Source: an uncultured archaeon (GTDB lineage Archaea; Asgardarchaeota; Lokiarchaeia; Sigyniarchaeales; Promethearchaeaceae). From it: DNA of 15,331 bases. Below, one piece after another: positions 976 through 9,834 of the stretch. The notes below the pieces were generated by a model. That model was not told the DNA's origin, ran no database searches, and was given only the letters and a program-made list of their open reading frames with translations. The translations under genes were made by a program, and so were the position numbers. The stretch's first letter is position 1; each line of letters begins with the position of its first letter. The stretch covers positions 1 through 15,331 of the forward strand of contig CAYRPF010000075.1 of NCBI GenBank assembly GCA_964426185.1, read 5' to 3'.

Positions 976-1770
976 ATGAGATTCGGTTCAAATCAACGCT
1001 TTTCGCATCATTTTCAATATCATAAATCAGATTGCACCATCATCACCGATGTTCAAGCCAAAATTAAAGTTGCCATGGATAGATTTCATCAAGATCTCTC
1101 AAATCTTGAAAAATTTGTGGAAGAACATCCGGATTGGAAAGATTCCTACTTTCCTGTGAGTATCAGTTCTTCTAATTCGCAAAATTCTGAAAATTCTAAT
1201 AAATCTCGCGATGCAATTATTTCACTGATGGAGGATGCTGCGAAATTAACGAATGTAGGTCCGATGGCAACAGTTGCAGGTGCTTTAGCCGATAGAATGG
1301 TTCAAGTTATATTAACAGAAATAGCAGGTGAAACTCTTCCTCGTGTGGCAGTAGTAGAGAATGGGGGTGAAATCTCCATCAATTCCCAAGAAGATATTAT
1401 TATAAATCTCCAAGTTCTATCTACTTCGCTTCAATCAAAACTCGGATTCAAGTTTATCGGAGGTTCACCGCCACTCGGAATAGCTACCAGTTCAGCTACT
1501 TTCGGACATGCTGATAGTTTAGGAGAAGCAGATGCCGTAGTCGTCTTTGCTCCTTCTGCCGCGATTGCTGATGGGGCAGCGACTTATATCTGTAATGCAG
1601 TAAAGGGAGAGAACAATCAAGCTGCGATTCAAGCAGGATTAACAGCTTTTAAGGATATACCAGATCTGTATGGAGTTTTTATTGTTAAAAATGAAATAAT
1701 TGCTCAGAAAGGAGAAATTCCCCCAATAGTTAGGATAACTGATTCAAAAAAGAAAGGATGTAGAAAATAA
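976..1770 (+). CDS. UPF0280 / ApbE-like protein (COG2122, MA1715-like sulfide assimilation factor)
   Basis: Family motifs VGPMATVAGALAD, VVENGGEI, GIATSSATFGHADSLGEADAVVV and ADGAATYICN; adjacent to a COG1900 gene. Confidence 0.88.
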   Translation: MRFGSNQRFSHHFQYHKSDCTIITDVQAKIKVAMDRFHQDLSNLEKFVEEHPDWKDSYFPVSISSSNSQNSENSNKSRDAIISLMEDAAKLTNVGPMATVAGALADRMVQVILTEIAGETLPRVAVVENGGEISINSQEDIIINLQVLSTSLQSKLGFKFIGGSPPLGIATSSATFGHADSLGEADAVVVFAPSAAIADGAATYICNAVKGENNQAAIQAGLTAFKDIPDLYGVFIVKNEIIAQKGEIPPIVRITDSKKKGCRK

Positions 1771-1775
1771 GTGGG

Positions 1776-1982
1776 TTAATTTAATGCTTGACGTGGACAT
1801 GCATCCAAGCAGAGTTTGCAACCATTGCAATTTTCTACATGAAAATGAAAATAATCATGTTCATCCATCTGCAAAGCCGAAAATTTGCAAATAGATATGC
1901 ACCATCCGCACTGAACACATTTTTCTGGGAAATATTCAATTGTTCGATGAAATTTATCAGTTTTACTACTCATTTCCTTCAT
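1776..1982 (-). CDS. 2x[4Fe-4S] ferredoxin, probable Fe-S partner of aspartate-semialdehyde sulfurtransferase (MA1822/MJ0099-like, no NIL domain)
   Basis: Two CxxCxxCxxxC motifs (CVQCGWCISIC, CNGCKLCLDACP); overlaps the 3' end of the COG1900 gene; GGAGG just upstream of the ATG. Confidence 0.85.
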   Translation of the reverse strand: MKEMSSKTDKFHRTIEYFPEKCVQCGWCISICKFSALQMDEHDYFHFHVENCNGCKLCLDACPRQALN

Positions 1983-3102
1983 AATCCTCCTGAGACAAAT
2001 TTTTAAATTCCGTTTCCCTTGGTAAGGGAAGAACGGGTGGACGGAACGAAATCACCCCTTGTTTGCTCCATTTCTTAAGAATTTTCGTAATTTGCCGAGA
2101 TTTAGCATATGAAGAAGTTGATGACACAGGTATTTGCTTTCCCTCGATTTCAATGACTCTGGATTTCAACTCCTCATAAGAAACTTCTCGCAACAAAGGA
2201 CGTTCTCTTTCTCTGGTAGAATAATCTAATACTGAAGTGAAAATTTCGCTATCCGGAGTTCCACACGTTCGAGCTAATCCTTCGTTTATTATCGGAATGG
2301 GAATTCCCAACCCAATAAAACAACTTGAGCCATATCCTGAAATTGCTGCACCCGCAATAAATTCAGGTGACATTTCTTTTAAATTTCCGGTTACCATGAT
2401 ATTTCCCATCTGAGATCTCGGATTATGCTGAGTGCCAGGACCAATAATCGTTCCTAAAGCACCTCCTAAGAATATTGAAGTTCCGAGACCAATAGTTTGA
2501 TAGGTGGGATCGTTATTTAGAGGTGACATTGTGCCCACTCCTCCATAAGCCCCATTTTGAAGATTTGGTAGAAGTTTACCCATATAAGTATATAAAATTT
2601 CACCAGAATTATTAACTGCACAAACATACCGTTGGTAAGCATTACGAGGGTTTATCATAATTGCTTGATTAAAATTCTTTAATTTCAGACGGACATTTAG
2701 AGATTTTCGGGGATAACAATCAGTTCCCGCGCCGGTAACTTCAATTTGTACGGATTTTCTCCTTAATAAACTTTCCAGAACATGACCTCCACCAAAATTT
2801 TCGTTTTCTGAACTAGTTTGAGTAACCCCTAAGTAAAAATCTGCGGCAGCATTTCCGTGATAGGCATTAATTCCATCAATTACAACTGTTTCCATTTTTA
2901 TGGGAGGATCTGGTTGAGGAATATTGAAAAAAACACCACTTGAGCACATACATCCAAAAGTGCCTGTGGTTACCACATCTACTTCTTCAGCAGCATATTC
3001 CACCCCTTCATTTTCAACTAATTCAACCATTTCTTCTGCTGTCAAAATGACTGCGACGCCATCTTTAATTTTTTTGTTAATTTCTTCATATGTTTTGGTC
3101 AT
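1966..3102 (-). CDS. Homocysteine biosynthesis protein / L-aspartate semialdehyde sulfurtransferase (COG1900, DUF39; MA1821/MJ0100-like), without CBS domains
   Basis: N-terminus KTYEEINKKIKDGVAVILTAEE, VDVVTTGTFGCMCSSG, GGGHVLE, GTDCYPR, NPRNAYQ, YTYMGKLLP, SPLNNDP, GTQHNP; GGAGG SD and ATGA overlap with the aspartate kinase stop. Confidence 0.92.
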   Translation of the reverse strand: MTKTYEEINKKIKDGVAVILTAEEMVELVENEGVEYAAEEVDVVTTGTFGCMCSSGVFFNIPQPDPPIKMETVVIDGINAYHGNAAADFYLGVTQTSSENENFGGGHVLESLLRRKSVQIEVTGAGTDCYPRKSLNVRLKLKNFNQAIMINPRNAYQRYVCAVNNSGEILYTYMGKLLPNLQNGAYGGVGTMSPLNNDPTYQTIGLGTSIFLGGALGTIIGPGTQHNPRSQMGNIMVTGNLKEMSPEFIAGAAISGYGSSCFIGLGIPIPIINEGLARTCGTPDSEIFTSVLDYSTRERERPLLREVSYEELKSRVIEIEGKQIPVSSTSSYAKSRQITKILKKWSKQGVISFRPPVLPLPRETEFKNLSQEDYEGNE

Positions 3103-4628
3103 ATGATTTCCTCCTTTTTTTCATTTTGCTGAGGGATAGTTGAGTTATTACTTTTTTGATCTTGGTTGTTTAAATTTTGATTCTGATGGTTTCCTAGAGA
3201 ATAGGATAAATTAATCGCGTTTGCAATTTCAGTAACATTAATACGCGGAACTACCACTGATACCGTGATTCCTTGATAATCTTGTAAGATTCCATGAGCA
3301 GAAATACCCGAATGTTGCAAAATTTTACCAATTTTTGCAATAATTTCTGCTTGATGTTTCTGATCGGTAATAATTGTAATGATTCCGGCTGGTTGTGCAT
3401 AAATTTGTAGCCATTCTTCTGGGATATGTCCGTTTTTTTGGAATTTTTTTAGTTTCTCCTTCATATCAATATCGATCGTTGATATAAGCAGTCGGTTTTG
3501 TGAGTATGATTGCTGAAGGAGGGACAACTGTAGTTTATTGTGGTTACAAAAGGAGAATAATTCTTGCATAAATGCCATTTCATGAAACAAAAAAGGAGAT
3601 TCTAATATAATAAGATAAGCATTCGCATCTATTTCAATTCCTTTAATTGGAAGACTTACTTTTGATGAAGAAATTAATGTAAATTCAGAACTCTCGGGTT
3701 GACGAAAAGCACGTAGTTCGATGGGGATTTGTTGGTTTTCTATTATGCTGATGCATTTTGGATGTAAAATTTTTGCGCCCAGCACTGCAATTTCCTTAGC
3801 TTCTGTATAATTTAATCTGGAAATCAAATGGGGTGCTTGAATATATTCCGGATTACCAGAAAGTACTCCAGGAACATCCTTCCAAAGAATAATACGGCCG
3901 TTTTCAAATTTTTGAGCATCATGAAGCATTCTCGCTATAATCGTAGCTGTAAAATCGCTTCCCCCTCTTCCTAAAGTTGTCGTGTAGCCGATTTCATTTC
4001 TCCCAATAAATCCCGTAATTACCAAAATTTGGTGATTCCAATTGTTATCAAGTAATGGTACAATTTTTTGAATGATTCGAGCACGAGTATGTTCTAAATC
4101 TGGCACTGCTTTATTATACTCGCTATTTGTGATTATCAAATCTTCCCCAAAAAAAACTTTTGAAGAAAAATTTTCTTGGGAAAGGAATAAATGAACTAAG
4201 GTTGCACACAATTTTTCACCAAATGACATGATATAATCGATAAAATAGGGAACAATGCCGAATTCTGCCACTTCTTCAAGAACAGTTGAAAGATCATGCA
4301 GTATTCCTTGTAATTCTCCTTTTGCAGAGTTTGTTACCTTTAAACTTTCTTCAAATAGATTATCAATAAATTGCTCGTGGATTTCTTCTATTTTCTTTAT
4401 ACGAGCGATTACTTGATGGTCACACCCAGTGCTCGCTAAATGGGTTAATTCTATCAACAAATCTGTTACACCTTTTAAAGCAGAAACAACTACGATAATA
4501 GTGGTAGGTTTTGATTCTTTCTTGAAGTAAGACGTGAGAATTTGCTTAATTTGACTGAAATCTTCAGGTTGGGAAAGACAACTTCCGCCAAATTTCATAA
4601 TTACATTATATTTATTTTGTGTATTCAA
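3099..4628 (-). CDS. lysC: Aspartate kinase
   Basis: MKFGGS, VVVSA, TTTLGRGGSDFTA, WKDVPG and GAKILHP motifs; divergent ACT-like C-terminal region. Start is TTG overlapping the asd TGA; the ATG at MKFGG is an alternative. Confidence 0.93.
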   Translation of the reverse strand: MNTQNKYNVIMKFGGSCLSQPEDFSQIKQILTSYFKKESKPTTIIVVVSALKGVTDLLIELTHLASTGCDHQVIARIKKIEEIHEQFIDNLFEESLKVTNSAKGELQGILHDLSTVLEEVAEFGIVPYFIDYIMSFGEKLCATLVHLFLSQENFSSKVFFGEDLIITNSEYNKAVPDLEHTRARIIQKIVPLLDNNWNHQILVITGFIGRNEIGYTTTLGRGGSDFTATIIARMLHDAQKFENGRIILWKDVPGVLSGNPEYIQAPHLISRLNYTEAKEIAVLGAKILHPKCISIIENQQIPIELRAFRQPESSEFTLISSSKVSLPIKGIEIDANAYLIILESPFLFHEMAFMQELFSFCNHNKLQLSLLQQSYSQNRLLISTIDIDMKEKLKKFQKNGHIPEEWLQIYAQPAGIITIITDQKHQAEIIAKIGKILQHSGISAHGILQDYQGITVSVVVPRINVTEIANAINLSYSLGNHQNQNLNNQDQKSNNSTIPQQNEKKEEII

Positions 4629-5803
4629 AATTTTGACCTCCCAAATAATTTCTTCAAATATAAATATTCGGCATTAAGAACCGCACCTCTGCCAGCCCCA
4701 AGTTCTGTATTATGAGAGAGAACGGTCATTTTAAACCCATTGTTGAAGTTAGAAGGTTCCAAACCTCCAATAAAGGTGGTCATGCCATGATTATCCGAGG
4801 ATAAATCGATTCGAGGTTGGGGACGATCTTTGTATTCTGATGAAAACACCATAATTGGGGTTTTTGGATAATTGAGAAGGCTTTTTCTATCAATTTCTGT
4901 CATGTCATCAGTTCCTTGAAAGTCTTGCAAGCATTTACGAATCTCTATTTCAGTCGCTGTTTTGATAGTCTGGAAGAAGACAGATATCATATGACCTTCC
5001 AGTACTGGGACACGATTGCATTTAACATCTACGATGAAATCTGGGATTGAAAATAATTCTTTGTTCGTCTCAAGTTTTGGGATTTTCGCAAAGATTTTCT
5101 TCAATTCTATCCGAACTTTCTGCTCTTCTTCAGGAATATAGGGTATTATGTTGCCTAATATATCATAAGAACTTATTCCCCCATAGCCTGCCCCGCTAAC
5201 GGCTTGCATAGAAACTGCAGTGACATTTTTCAATCCAAATGTCTTAAAAATTGGATACAATGCCACCGCTAGACCTACTGTGGTGCAATTCGGACCGGGA
5301 CAAATAAAACCATCACTTTTGTTTTTTTGTTGTTGCAATCGAAGTAAATCTGCATGATGTCCGTTAACAATAGGTAAAAATATCGGAATATCAGGTTGAT
5401 ATCGTGCCCATGAGGCTGTAGAAAAAACAGGTACCTTTTTAGCCAGTTTAGACTCGATTAAAGCCGCTTGCTCTGATGGAATTGCTGAAAACACCAAGTC
5501 AATTTCATTGATATCAAGATTTTCTACCGATTTTACTGGTATATCTGCAATTTTCTTGGGTATTTTTTTGGCAGTGGCAGATCGTCTGGCCTTTGAATAA
5601 GGTAAACCAACTGTTCCTAATCCATGAAGGGAGAAAATTTCGAACCAAGGATGGGAAATTAAAGAATCGACTATTGATTGCCCTGCCAATCCTGTACATC
5701 CAATTATAGCTGCTTTCAGTTTACGAGGGCTAGTTATAGTTACGGATTTTTCTTTTTTTTCAATTTTAGGAATTTTTTCCAATTTATTTGCCTGTAAATC
5801 CAT
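4625..5803 (-). CDS. asd: Aspartate-semialdehyde dehydrogenase (archaeal/fungal type)
   Basis: IIGCTGLAGQ nucleotide-binding motif, catalytic PNCTT, QAVSGAG, CNRVPVLEGH, DRPQPRID, SHNTELGAG. Start placed at ATG 5803 (AGGTG SD-like upstream) rather than the GTG at 5890. Confidence 0.95.
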   Translation of the reverse strand: MDLQANKLEKIPKIEKKEKSVTITSPRKLKAAIIGCTGLAGQSIVDSLISHPWFEIFSLHGLGTVGLPYSKARRSATAKKIPKKIADIPVKSVENLDINEIDLVFSAIPSEQAALIESKLAKKVPVFSTASWARYQPDIPIFLPIVNGHHADLLRLQQQKNKSDGFICPGPNCTTVGLAVALYPIFKTFGLKNVTAVSMQAVSGAGYGGISSYDILGNIIPYIPEEEQKVRIELKKIFAKIPKLETNKELFSIPDFIVDVKCNRVPVLEGHMISVFFQTIKTATEIEIRKCLQDFQGTDDMTEIDRKSLLNYPKTPIMVFSSEYKDRPQPRIDLSSDNHGMTTFIGGLEPSNFNNGFKMTVLSHNTELGAGRGAVLNAEYLYLKKLFGRSKF

Positions 5804-5904
5804 TAAATTCACACCTTTATATTTTTTTTTAAGATTTTTAACCGAATTTGTAATGTAGATAGGCGATACTGAAAGTTTCAGAAAATACACGACACTTAAA
5901 ATTA

Positions 5905-6095
5905 ATTAACCTAGATTCCATCGCCCCCCCCATCTGGCGACAGATCATCAACATTTTTCTAAAAACAGAGAACGAGCGATCGAATTTTGATTCCTTAATT
6001 AAAGTGCCTTTGCCATAGCCATCATACTGACTATGGCCCAGCGCATCGGGAACATGGAAAATTTATCCCACTTGCTGCCCATGTATAAATCTAGG
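5905..6095 (-). promoter_or_regulatory. Structured, GC-enriched 5' leader of the asd operon (candidate attenuator/riboregulator)
   Basis: Hairpin 6012..6037 (10 bp, one G-U), hairpin 5918..5943 (8 bp, two G-U), long-range pairs 6088..6095/5910..5917 and 6048..6059/5916..5928. The G-U pairs form only on the minus strand. Confidence 0.55.
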
Positions 6096-6145
6096 AACTT
6101 TAAAGAATCGGATCGCATTATTAGGTTCTTATTGGAAGGCATCAT
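5999..6145 (-). CDS. Putative Met-rich leader peptide / uORF (48 aa: MMPSNKNLIMRSDSLKFLDLYMGSKWDKFSMFPMRWAIVSMMAMAKAL)
   Basis: Hand translation, below the ORF-track cutoff. 9 Met in 48 codons, all ATGs in frame, upstream of the homocysteine operon. True start may be M1 (6145), M10 (6118) or M22 (6082). Confidence 0.55.
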   Translation of the reverse strand: MMPSNKNLIMRSDSLKFLDLYMGSKWDKFSMFPMRWAIVSMMAMAKAL

Positions 6146-6164
6146 TTAAGAAATTAATGAAAAT

Positions 6165-6509
6165 TCAGCCACCACCAATTGGCGGGAAAATGGCTACTAC
6201 TGAATTATCCTTTACAATGGGTGTATTCAATGCTTGCTCAGTGAATAAAATGCGTCCATTTAATATAACTTTAAAATATTTGCGTAATATTGGAATTGGT
6301 TCGGAAAAATCTATGATTTCTTGGAGGAATTTTTGACTTTGAGGAAGAGATCGAGCAATATCTTGCAAAAGTGCACCAATAGTATCCCCCTTTTTAATAA
6401 TATAAAAATTCTTCTTGAATTGGGTCAGATCGCGTAAATTAGCAAATACTCGCACTTCTACTTTTATATCGATTTGATCTTGATCAGGATTGACATTCAT
6501 TCGATTCAC
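6165..6509 (-). CDS. moaD: MoaD/ThiS/SAMP ubiquitin-like sulfur carrier protein
   Basis: VEVRVFANLRD N-terminus, VILNGR, C-terminal VAIFPPIGGG diglycine end; downstream of AOR and its maturase. GTG start, with ATG 6500 as an alternative. Confidence 0.88.
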   Translation of the reverse strand: MNRMNVNPDQDQIDIKVEVRVFANLRDLTQFKKNFYIIKKGDTIGALLQDIARSLPQSQKFLQEIIDFSEPIPILRKYFKVILNGRILFTEQALNTPIVKDNSVVAIFPPIGGG

Positions 6510-6515
6510 TTCACT

Positions 6516-7889
6516 TCATGATTTTCTTCTATTTGAATTGAAATCAAACAAACATTTTACAAAACCCGTACTATATGGACATTCATTGCATCCCGGTTGA
6601 TTCCCATAGCAATCTCCCGTATTGTCTGAGATATAATAGCAGTTTTGGGTTGAATAGACACAATCTCCGCAATAAGGGACTTTAGTTGAAATTGATGTCA
6701 AGATTGAATGAAGTTCAAGTACTTTTTTACATGAAGTTTCGGGATCTGCGATACTTCCTAAAATATAAGGATGAATTATGCGTTCATGATGATTAATTAT
6801 CATTGAATGTTCATGCCCAAAATTATAACATGGAATAATACTACCATCATAAGTAATAAATAAGGCATTTCGTGCTGCAAATGGGCATTCTCGTTTAGTT
6901 GACTCTGCAAATAATGGCGGTAGGTCAATTTTTATTCTCTTTTGTTCAGCTAATTCGGATAAATATGTAAACATTTTTTTTGCTTCTAAGATCGAATACT
7001 TTTTCGTTTGAACATCGGTAATTTTATGTAGATCTAATTCAATTTCCTTATTCTTGATCATTTCGATAGTTTGGAGTAGTTTTTTGATTTGAGAATGCTT
7101 ATCGGCAATTAGAATTTTATGATATTTTGGTGTTAATATAATTTGATCTAAGATTTCCCATCCAATTTTCCCTATTTCATCCAAAATACGGAAAGCTTCC
7201 TCAGATATTGGCAAAAAAATAGATTTTCTTTCCATATCATTTGTATAAGGCAAGAGATGAGAAAAAAATATTTGGGGTATTCCGTTTTTGGAACAAAAAT
7301 CTATTAGAAAGGGGAGATCATATAAATTCTCTTTTGATATGATGGTTTCAATTGCTATTTCTCCTATTTTTCCTGCGTGATATTCATTAGCAAGATAAAT
7401 CAAATTGTCAAATACTTCATTGGTAAAACCTTCTCTCATTTGTTTGATTTTGGCAATAAATGGTGAATCAATCGACACTATAATACGGTCGATGTGATAT
7501 TGAAGGATTAAATTGAGATACTCAGAAGTTAAAAGCGAACCATTCGTAGTAAATTCCAATTTTGCTTTATGTGGTAGAAATTTTCGGGAAATCTGCAAAA
7601 TCGATAAAAAATCAGGATGGGTTAATGGCTCTCCTACACCATACAATATTAAGTGTTCTAAGGTCGGAAATAAACTTTCAGCAATTTTCTCAAATAAATC
7701 AATTGACATCTCCTGACTGATTAGTGAGTTTTGGGCGTGTAAGCACATTTTGCACTCAAAATTACACTTAGTGGTAATTTCCACCTGCAAAGTTTTCAAT
7801 TCAAATGGATTGGATGAATTTTTAGCAGATATATTTGATTTTCCTAATACCTGATGAGAAGAGTTTAAATTCACAGCTGGCAACTCCAT
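6516..7889 (-). CDS. Radical SAM/SPASM protein, probable tungsten-cofactor oxidoreductase (AOR) maturase
   Basis: CNFECKMC (CxxxCxxC), GVGEPLTHP, FTTNGSLL, and a Cys-rich C-terminus (ECPF...IIPCY...CGDC...C...DCYGNQPGCNECPYSTGFVKC); located directly after aor. Confidence 0.85.
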   Translation of the reverse strand: MELPAVNLNSSHQVLGKSNISAKNSSNPFELKTLQVEITTKCNFECKMCLHAQNSLISQEMSIDLFEKIAESLFPTLEHLILYGVGEPLTHPDFLSILQISRKFLPHKAKLEFTTNGSLLTSEYLNLILQYHIDRIIVSIDSPFIAKIKQMREGFTNEVFDNLIYLANEYHAGKIGEIAIETIISKENLYDLPFLIDFCSKNGIPQIFFSHLLPYTNDMERKSIFLPISEEAFRILDEIGKIGWEILDQIILTPKYHKILIADKHSQIKKLLQTIEMIKNKEIELDLHKITDVQTKKYSILEAKKMFTYLSELAEQKRIKIDLPPLFAESTKRECPFAARNALFITYDGSIIPCYNFGHEHSMIINHHERIIHPYILGSIADPETSCKKVLELHSILTSISTKVPYCGDCVYSTQNCYYISDNTGDCYGNQPGCNECPYSTGFVKCLFDFNSNRRKS

Positions 7890-7934
7890 TGAATTAAAAA
7901 AGTAGTACTATAAAAATTCGCTGTTGATATTTTT

Positions 7935-7959
7935 AAAAAAGTGAAGGAAAAAATTTCAC
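7935..7959 (-). terminator. Possible terminator after aor
   Basis: Minus strand GTGAA-ATTTTTTCC-TTCAC-TTTTTT: 5-bp stem plus U tract, about 25 nt after the aor stop. Confidence 0.3.
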
Positions 7960-7983
7960 ATATACATTTTTTTTATTTGGAAT

Positions 7984-9834
7984 TTAGTCAATTCCTAATT
8001 CAGATAATTTTCCCGCAGTGGGTACACCTCTTTCATCCCAACCGCGCAGCTTATAGTATTCCTTCAACATATCATCAAGTTTGAACACTTCTCCCTTTGA
8101 AGGTCCTTCTGGAAGGGGTTCTTCAGACAACCGCTTGGGTAGAAAGTCTTGAGCAACTACACCCAACTTTTCCATAATTACCCGTTGGAGATTGTAAATT
8201 CGTTCACCTACATTTAATACGGTTTCAGCACTAATATTCCAGCCAGTTACAGCAGTCATTAAGGCAGCAAAATCATCCGCTCCCAAGGCAAACGTTGTAA
8301 ATAGGCAGTTCACCGTACTATTCACTGCTGCGGTAAAATCTTGGAATATCTTCACCCATGTTGGCTTAACTCCATAATCTAAACGGTCTATCTGTTCTGG
8401 AAGACCGATTACCTCAGGGGATACAGTATAACCAGTAACATGGCATCCTCCACGATTAGCGGTGGCATAATTTAGTCCGATACCCTTTACTCCTCGGGGG
8501 TCATAGGCAGGCATTTCTAATTTTTTGGCAGTCATACTTAGTTCTGGGTGGCCGTAAGAATTAGCCAAATGATGCGAGCCCATAATCAATTTTTTACCGA
8601 ATCCTTCTCCTTTGCCCATCAGTTTAATGGCATCCACCAACCCTTGACTACTACCGAATTTTAAATCTAATCCTTCGTAATCTGAGGGAGGAATATAACC
8701 TTTCTCTGCTAATTCCATTGCAGCCGCCACTGTAGATCCCGCAGAAATGGTATCAATTCCGTATTCATCGCAGTAATGATTTGCCATAATAACGGCAGGC
8801 ATATCATATACCCCACAACTACTTCCGAAAGCCCAAATACTTTCATATTCAGGACCTTCAGTTTCTGCAATTTTAAATGGACCTTCATCTACCTTAGTTG
8901 CTCGACCGCAAGCGATTGAACAACCCCAGCACGGATGACGTTTGCGTAGATATTTTTCAGTAAGTGTTTCTCCACTAATTTGCTCTGCTTTTTCGCTATA
9001 AGAAAATTGCCAGTTATTTACAGGTAATGAGCCAATATTATTAACTACATTTACTAGAACGGCTGTCCCATATGTTGGAAGACCGGTTCCGCAGACTGGA
9101 TTCTCCTTCATCTTGGCTAAAGTTGATTTAGAGAGCTCTTTGAATTTTTCTGGATCTGCAGTTTCAACTTTCAAAGTTCCACCAGTAACAATTGCTTTCA
9201 ACTTTTTCGAGCCCATTACTGCACCTACTCCTGTTCTTCCGGCAGCTCGATGTGCATCATTCATGATGCCTGCAATTGGGGCTAATTTTTCACCTGGAGG
9301 TCCAATGCATGCTACACTAATTTTATGTCCTACATCTTGGTATTGTTTCTTTAATTGTTCATCCGTTTCAAAAACGGTTTTTCCCCATAAATTCCCCGCA
9401 TCTTTGATAGTTACTGTTCCATTCAAAGCTTCTAAATAAACCGGACCATCAGCTTTTCCTTCAATTACTAGCATGTCGATACCTGCTTTTTTAAGTAAAG
9501 CACCGAATTCACCTCCTGAATTAGCTGATCCAATAGAACCTGTTAGAGGTGATTTTAACATCATCACATGATGTCGACCAGGACTGGGGAAACCTGTGAT
9601 TCCCGTTCCCGGTCCAGTTCCTATCACCAGCAAGTTATCCGGTGAAAAAGCGTCAAATTCTTTCAAATTAACTCCTGCAGCTTCTAATTTTTTAACTTGA
9701 TCCCAGAGAATTTTGGTTCCAAGTCCTGCTCCACCCCAATATTCTTGATAAGTTTTTAGAGGGATTTCCATTAGAGTTGCAGTTCGATCCGAAAGATTAA
9801 CTCGTATTACTTTCCCCATTAATCCATTTCCCAT
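7984..9834 (-). CDS. aor: Tungsten-containing aldehyde:ferredoxin oxidoreductase
   Basis: KSPLTG, SANSGGEFG, AAGRTGVGAVMGSKKLKAI, CWGCSIAC, EGPEYES, DEYGIDTIS, PAYDPRG, NRGGCH, YYKLRGWD; AGGTG SD upstream. Confidence 0.95.
   Translation of the reverse strand: MGNGLMGKVIRVNLSDRTATLMEIPLKTYQEYWGGAGLGTKILWDQVKKLEAAGVNLKEFDAFSPDNLLVIGTGPGTGITGFPSPGRHHVMMLKSPLTGSIGSANSGGEFGALLKKAGIDMLVIEGKADGPVYLEALNGTVTIKDAGNLWGKTVFETDEQLKKQYQDVGHKISVACIGPPGEKLAPIAGIMNDAHRAAGRTGVGAVMGSKKLKAIVTGGTLKVETADPEKFKELSKSTLAKMKENPVCGTGLPTYGTAVLVNVVNNIGSLPVNNWQFSYSEKAEQISGETLTEKYLRKRHPCWGCSIACGRATKVDEGPFKIAETEGPEYESIWAFGSSCGVYDMPAVIMANHYCDEYGIDTISAGSTVAAAMELAEKGYIPPSDYEGLDLKFGSSQGLVDAIKLMGKGEGFGKKLIMGSHHLANSYGHPELSMTAKKLEMPAYDPRGVKGIGLNYATANRGGCHVTGYTVSPEVIGLPEQIDRLDYGVKPTWVKIFQDFTAAVNSTVNCLFTTFALGADDFAALMTAVTGWNISAETVLNVGERIYNLQRVIMEKLGVVAQDFLPKRLSEEPLPEGPSKGEVFKLDDMLKEYYKLRGWDERGVPTAGKLSELGID

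Follow-up and report, generated by a model that had tools for sequence, protein, structure and literature searches.

A methionine-codon-rich leader ORF with a two-state RNA before the aspartate-to-homocysteine operon of Lokiarchaeia: a candidate ribosome-dependent attenuator

Attenuation by leader peptides is textbook knowledge in bacteria, as is nutrient sensing by upstream ORFs (uORFs) in eukaryotes. In the classical attenuator topology, the helix between regions 1 and 2 of the leader RNA (1:2) is the off state. In the case of CGS1, a conserved peptide inside the main ORF is needed, and the system represses on high SAM. The mycobacterial polycysteine leaderless sORFs (Ms5788A; bioRxiv 10.1101/834739) serve a sulfur amino-acid pathway, and occupancy of the sORF by ribosomes prevents an attenuating fold. 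In archaea, amino-acid operons are known to be controlled by the TrpY repressor and the Tar activator (PMC6737238), and termination occurs at U-tracts with aCPSF1 (PMC8716108, PMC11616081). That ribosome position might control aCPSF1/FttA termination in archaea has been raised as an untested hypothesis (PMC11616081). Our literature search, which left most subscription papers outside, returned no report of leader-peptide attenuation in archaea, and none of Met-codon counting in any organism.

The locus described here lies in a 15,331-nt stretch of an uncultured lokiarchaeal genome (contig CAYRPF010000075.1; hereafter the window). Like the enterobacterial trpL, hisL, thrL, pheL, leuL and ilvL leaders and the Mtb ilvB1 attenuator (PMC13236596), it has a short uORF, rich in codons for the end product, in front of a biosynthetic operon.

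The operon and its leader ORF

All features are on the minus strand unless stated otherwise. The operon, asd-lysC-hcyBio-ferredoxin, begins with asd, encoding aspartate-semialdehyde dehydrogenase (4625..5803; PF01118 and PF02774), followed by the aspartate kinase gene lysC (3099..4628; PF00696, TIGR00657), by hcyBio, the COG1900 large subunit of L-ASST, here without CBS domains (1966..3102; PF01837 only), and by a 4Fe-4S ferredoxin gene for an MA1822-like partner (1776..1982; PF00037). L-ASST consists of hcyBio and the ferredoxin and makes homocysteine from aspartate semialdehyde (PMC12068725), which, with the Pfam domains, bears out the homocysteine pathway assigned to these genes in a first-pass annotation of the window. 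Since the window genome also encodes a MetH-type synthase, methionine can be regarded as the operon's end product; MetE was not found with PF01717 in five genomes. Converging on the operon is a UPF0280/COG2122-like gene (976-1770, plus strand; PRK04334 family, below cut-off) that is kept in all same-genus loci seen, and directly upstream of the leader lies a cluster of AOR, radical SAM/SPASM and MoaD genes (6165-9834). A second COG1900 paralogue with 36% identity is located at C50:19155-20051 of the window genome (G000; locus L139), where it adjoins a possible phosphonopyruvate/sulfopyruvate decarboxylase-like gene.

The leader ORF is housed in the 361-nt gap between the MoaD/ThiS gene (6165-6509) and the asd start at 5803. 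The first-pass annotation had placed it at 5999-6145, and its description of that frame was accurate: 48 residues with 9 Met (versus 7 in the 392 residues of Asd), all nine ATGs in a single frame, and a stop 195 nt before the asd start. Its estimate that the Met enrichment exceeds chance is also confirmed, as the 361-nt region was dinucleotide-shuffled 20,000 times and never gave 9 Met in one open frame. The window genome has 2,515 small intergenic ORFs close to a downstream gene, and none of the others is as enriched in any one amino acid as the leader.

The start, on the other hand, has to be moved from 6145 to 6118, the position common to all ten loci that we compared. This leaves an ORF of 39 codons plus stop (5999..6118) with 7 Met, at codons 1, 13, 22, 25, 32, 33 and 35. 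The 9-codon in-frame extension (6119..6145) probably lies outside the conserved gene. Its two Met codons, at 6145 and 6142, abut a TATA-like box (6145..6152), are both missing in the closest relative, L116, and are not common to the other loci. When octamers are compared across loci, an identical TATA-like octamer is found at -34 from the leader AUG in four of them, with similar boxes at -31/-38 in the other six; we infer from the box a transcription start about 4 nt before the AUG. With such a box 31-38 nt before the AUG in 10/10 loci, the leader is probably nearly leaderless. In the window genome the MoaD stop comes only about 12 nt before the box, so that read-through into the leader is possible there. 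A DNA search of this genome found no second copy of the element.

Conservation of the leader in Lokiarchaeia

Homologous leaders of 39-55 codons precede the same asd-lysC(-hcyBio) operon in nine related loci from two genera. With the window, the comparison set thus comprises ten loci, which amount to only three or four independent lineages; L117, named Ca. Harpocratesius sp., is a near twin of the same-genus genome G001. Genomes G001 and G002 are syntenic with the window and carry the Met-rich ORF at the same place. In the second genus (G007, G012), where a ferritin gene takes the place of MoaD upstream, the ORF is present too, so the element travels with the downstream operon. Its length is exactly 39 codons in eight of the ten loci (51 and 55 in the other two), each leader has 7-14 Met against a proteome Met frequency of 2.0%, and 94 of the 98 internal ATGs across the ten loci are in frame. 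In-frame Met-rich ORFs are therefore kept in orthologous asd leaders despite sequence drift, the very check that had been suggested for this ORF. Differences from L116 fall 9/9/8 on the three codon positions, with a similar spread elsewhere, and only three columns of the peptide alignment are invariant. Selection thus acts on frame, length and Met count, and not on the peptide sequence.

This pattern bears on several other readings. The ORF could encode a small Met-rich protein with a function of its own, such as a sink for metals or oxidants, with the hairpin that follows being just its 3' end. The recurrent 39-codon length, a single call by gene callers and the metal-cofactor genes (MoaD, AOR) upstream in one genus would suit such a protein, which we nevertheless consider very unlikely, given the even spread of differences over codon positions, the few invariant columns, the lack of a Pfam match to the leader peptide, the linkage to the downstream operon, and the retention of region 1 (see below) as RNA across a shift in codon frame. 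The SAM/Met-dependent nascent-peptide arrest of the plant CGS1 kind that the first-pass annotation had proposed is not supported either, because only three columns are invariant and substitutions are even over codon positions. What could be taken for an arrest signal is a G-x-x-W motif, seen in one genus, and a Pro-Met-like motif that most loci have, but the motif is missing in the second genus and no purifying selection on the peptide is seen. Moreover, effector arrest would be expected to stall ribosomes at high Met, the reverse of sensing by codon enrichment, and we give this mechanism a slimmer chance still. Triplet-repeat slippage or plain chance is hardly credible and is largely refuted by the conservation data: ATG runs do occur, four in a row in G001, yet dispersed in-frame ATGs are present in all lineages, the shuffles never produced such a frame, and no such leader was found at the stand-alone loci inspected, about 38 of hcyBio and about 95 of lysC.

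The element is also narrowly distributed. Of 151 genomes in the class, a profile of the ten peptides finds a match in only 5, each at the asd operon. No Met leader was seen before metG or metH, and at L119, an asd-lysC locus that is CBS-less, the 130-nt gap contains no leader. In a third genus, which has a different Met route, the lysC-metY-metX-metW operon (L220, G010 C1:2388498 onward) has a long untranslated region and no Met-rich leader. A search for related loci with a single Asd query gave nothing useful, and one with a LysC alignment retrieved stand-alone lysC genes without leaders and one truncated homologue. In other Asgard families all pattern matches fell inside large ORFs and were rejected; viral contigs gave 116 raw matches, from the pattern scan alone.

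Two mutually exclusive helices and the position of the ribosome

After its stop codon the leader has a switching strand, region 2 (5974..6002; core AUCGCU at 5980-5975), that pairs either with region 1 (6099..6116), which covers codons 1-7 and overlaps the AUG, or with region 3 (5902..5933 with flanks; core GCGAU at 5924-5920). The two pairings are mutually exclusive. A pyrimidine/U tract (tract 1, 5961..5971, with U5 at 5965-5961) and a segment X (5936..5944), which folds into a local hairpin with region 3 when 1:2 is in place, lie between regions 2 and 3, and a U-rich tract 2 with two U4 runs occupies 5882..5901. This layout recurs in 10/10 loci: GCGAU of region 1 is invariant at the leader start, AUCGCU of region 2 lies 14-18 nt after the stop, GCGAU of region 3 follows 56-70 nt beyond region 2, and the distance from the stop to the U4-U5 run of tract 1 is 28-35 nt. 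The region 1 word stands in a shifted codon frame in G002 and L118, with its RNA sequence retained.

With duplex windows fixed by ORF geometry alone, the 1:2 duplex has -16 to -26 kcal/mol (shuffle p 0.000-0.027) and the 2:3 duplex -22 to -26 kcal/mol (shuffle p <= 0.004) in all ten loci. Both helices carry lineage-specific compensatory changes, in that strands from different loci cross-pair best when they belong to one lineage, and the pair types in the flanks differ from lineage to lineage; the pair counts rest on a hand-anchored register, and the helix cores are invariant. RNAalifold on MAFFT alignments recovered the X:3 hairpin only (six same-genus loci) and not 2:3, and model R1 on MAFFT alignments likewise returned X:3 only; misalignment of region 2 in the second genus is part of the reason. 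A 10-bp hairpin over the Met cluster, which had been singled out in the first-pass annotation, does exist (6012..6037; 6037-6028 with 6021-6012, one G-U pair; also in L116), with the Met-Met-Ala-Met codons in its loop and 3' arm, but the conserved structure is instead the 1:2/2:3 switch. As comparison of the loci shows, the ORF, its frame, its Met content and the two mutually exclusive helices are under selection, and we regard the leader as very probably a translated Met-responsive cis-regulator.

In an unbiased scan of the genome for this geometry the element was one of 314 candidates and took sixth place, after CRISPR-like repeats, a match on an rRNA contig, one other match and an element on contig C17. 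Type I-E CRISPR-array-like repeats are found on a short contig of the window genome (G000 C108:70-340). The C17 element is an unannotated ORF of 38-39 codons (G000 C17:1315-1434, plus strand, L395; also in G001, L263, and G002, L399) whose peptide has a conserved motif and whose stop is followed by a similar hairpin. It is divergent from a radical SAM gene and about 900 nt from the next same-strand gene, with conserved DNA blocks and a second 40-codon ORF in between, and an Rfam scan gave no real match. Could it encode a small protein or a RiPP-like precursor?

A two-state structure before a Met pathway also brings to mind an RNA switched by a ligand or a protein (a SAM riboswitch, a T-box-like or a protein-bound RNA), with the ORF incidental, since in bacteria such pathways are S-box and T-box territory (PMC1262725). 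The Rfam scan of the window gave no match up to E = 5, the conserved bases are those of the paired cores and not of a pocket, and the in-frame ATG bias and frame-preserving indels need translation, all of which make a switch of this kind very improbable.

How could translation set the switch? In computed folds of the nascent RNA before region 3 is made and with no ribosome bound, 1:2 forms with P >= 0.97 in 10/10 loci. With a 27-nt ribosome footprint (PMC7261190), these computations lose 1:2 entirely when a ribosome sits on codons 1-7, and mostly keep it when one ribosome by itself stands at codon 13 or beyond. What the switch reads is therefore likely to be whether the start region is occupied, and a queue would be required, as a single stalled ribosome does not block 1:2. 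At equilibrium the full leader of the window genome folds as 2:3 under all conditions, so that a queue-dependent latch would need kinetic trapping.

As for the output, each of the six same-genus loci leaves its U-tracts more open in 1:2 than in 2:3, by a modest margin, and in the second genus the difference is weak or reversed. The asd gene has a Shine-Dalgarno (SD)-like site at 5809..5818; genome-wide, SD motifs are most frequent at -10 to -14, and the 16S rRNA has the anti-SD. In G001 and L117, tract 1 is predicted to form an anti-SD duplex with the asd SD (-15.7 and -17.5 kcal/mol) that is opened in 2:3, and opening the SD costs 8.3 and 11.0 kcal/mol in 1:2 versus 1.4 and 4.7 kcal/mol in 2:3. 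Together, U-tract exposure in the same-genus loci and SD occlusion in G001 and L117 suggest that 1:2 is the off state. SD gating was not predicted in the window genome, L116, L118 or the second genus, and G002 gave only a weak shift. A universal anti-SD output, with occlusion predicted in only two of ten loci, was consequently rejected. U-tract/aCPSF1 termination is thus the more general candidate, as neither the window genome nor the second genus shows SD gating. No terminator-like site was found in the leader, where U-runs in the window genome come at least 12 nt past X:3. The window genome has an aCPSF1 gene, and the Loki aCPSF1 orthologue works with U-tracts and functions in M. maripaludis (PMC8716108), which makes the leader testable in heterologous archaeal hosts.

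Our preferred interpretation, which we hold to be probable though far from certain, is that the nearly leaderless Met-codon-rich uORF acts as a ribosome-dependent queue-and-latch attenuator of the aspartate-to-homocysteine operon. Under a shortage of charged tRNA-Met, ribosomes would come to a halt at Met codons, the earliest of them codon 12-13 in 8/10 loci, and queue back over the start region, keeping region 2 from region 1. Region 2 would then pair with region 3, masking the U/pyrimidine tracts, and the operon would be expressed. When Met is plentiful, ribosomes would clear, helix 1:2 would latch the leader AUG and leave the tracts exposed, and the RNA may then be terminated, at the U-tract with aCPSF1/FttA, or in G001-like loci the exposed tract may pair with the asd SD.

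The same sensor could also work with opposite polarity, 2:3 terminating and 1:2 serving as an antiterminator that forms around a ribosome stalled mid-leader or upon failed initiation for want of Met-tRNAi. All internal Met codons are indeed placed so that one ribosome leaves regions 1 and 2 free, U-rich tails come after 2:3, and a similar post-stop hairpin follows the conserved small gene at C17:1315, which has no gene close behind. We think this polarity unlikely, because in G001 and L117 the asd SD is occluded in 1:2 and freed in 2:3, because with so many Met codons to stall at, ribosomes should back up over region 1, and because the classical topology has 1:2 as its off state.

Related leaders and comparison with known systems

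The same scaffold occurs with a Lys/Met-rich leader before asd-dapA-dapB lysine operons at four loci of a Lokiarchaeum-like genus (L128, in G010 C1 before asd at 1974839, L404, L405 and L406). These leaders are rich in Lys, Met and Thr, have 35-38 codons and carry both the 1:2 and the 2:3 pairing; the three complete ones have 5-9 Lys and 4-6 Met. They are possibly homologues retuned to lysine. A 29-codon Ile-rich ORF stands about 220 nt before ileS in the window genome (G000 C51:19828-19917, plus strand, L136); it is kept in G001 (L240), with 10 Ile in the window genome and 9 in G001, and an Ile-rich ORF before ileS is present in G010 as well. Codon content thus seems to track the product of the operon, with Lys/Met leaders before lysine operons and an Ile-rich ORF before ileS.

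In a comparison of hcyBio from the window (1966-3102) with L253-L257, the CBS pair was absent from the proteins of the window genome, G007 and G006 and present in three tested stand-alone Loki hcyBio. This offers a hint, and only that, that allosteric CBS control gave way to leader control; hcyBio of G006 has neither CBS domains nor a leader. One may speculate on a Lokiarchaeia family of start-codon-latch attenuators, in which a ribosome queue at cognate codons gates cleavage-termination by the CPSF73-like aCPSF1, with the scaffold retuned to Met or to Lys/Met and perhaps replacing allosteric CBS control of L-ASST. We put this forward tentatively, as a conceivable reading that falls short of probable. 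If true, it would mean ribosome-dependent amino-acid attenuation in archaea, by Met codons. In these closest prokaryotic relatives of eukaryotes, the leader would also be a compact, mutable substrate for studying whether ribosome position controls aCPSF1/FttA termination.

Compared with known archaeal control, the leader resembles the TrpY and Tar systems in its predicted amino-acid-responsive control of an operon, and aCPSF1 is present; TrpY and Tar are, however, DNA-binding proteins, aCPSF1/U-tract termination is constitutive, and neither uses a leader ORF. With Arabidopsis CGS1 it would share ribosome-based control of a Met-pathway gene and stacked ribosomes, but its ORF is separate and has no conserved peptide. 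As in the enterobacterial attenuators, mutually exclusive helices follow the leader ORF, and here they are conserved and supported by shuffles and by lineage. Unlike those attenuators, it has an archaeal host, would sense Met, has a longer ORF with dispersed control codons and no Rfam match, and uses the start-codon region, not the control codons, as the switching partner. To judge from its sequence, the Met leader would work like a bacterial leader-peptide attenuator, yet it departs from the class in two defining respects: there is no intrinsic terminator, that is, no GC hairpin directly followed by a U-run, and the control codons lie outside the strand that a single stalled ribosome masks, region 1 being codons 1-7. 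In its logic the leader appears closest to the mycobacterial polycysteine leaderless sORFs (10.1101/834739), with which it would share a probably leaderless sORF whose occupancy is predicted to prevent the attenuating fold, a sulfur amino-acid pathway and, as predicted in G001 and L117 only (2/10), occlusion of the SD. In Ms5788A the Cys codons themselves pair with the SD, whereas the Met codons of the present leader take part in no pairing with the SD or with region 2, and the queue of ribosomes would have to reach the start.
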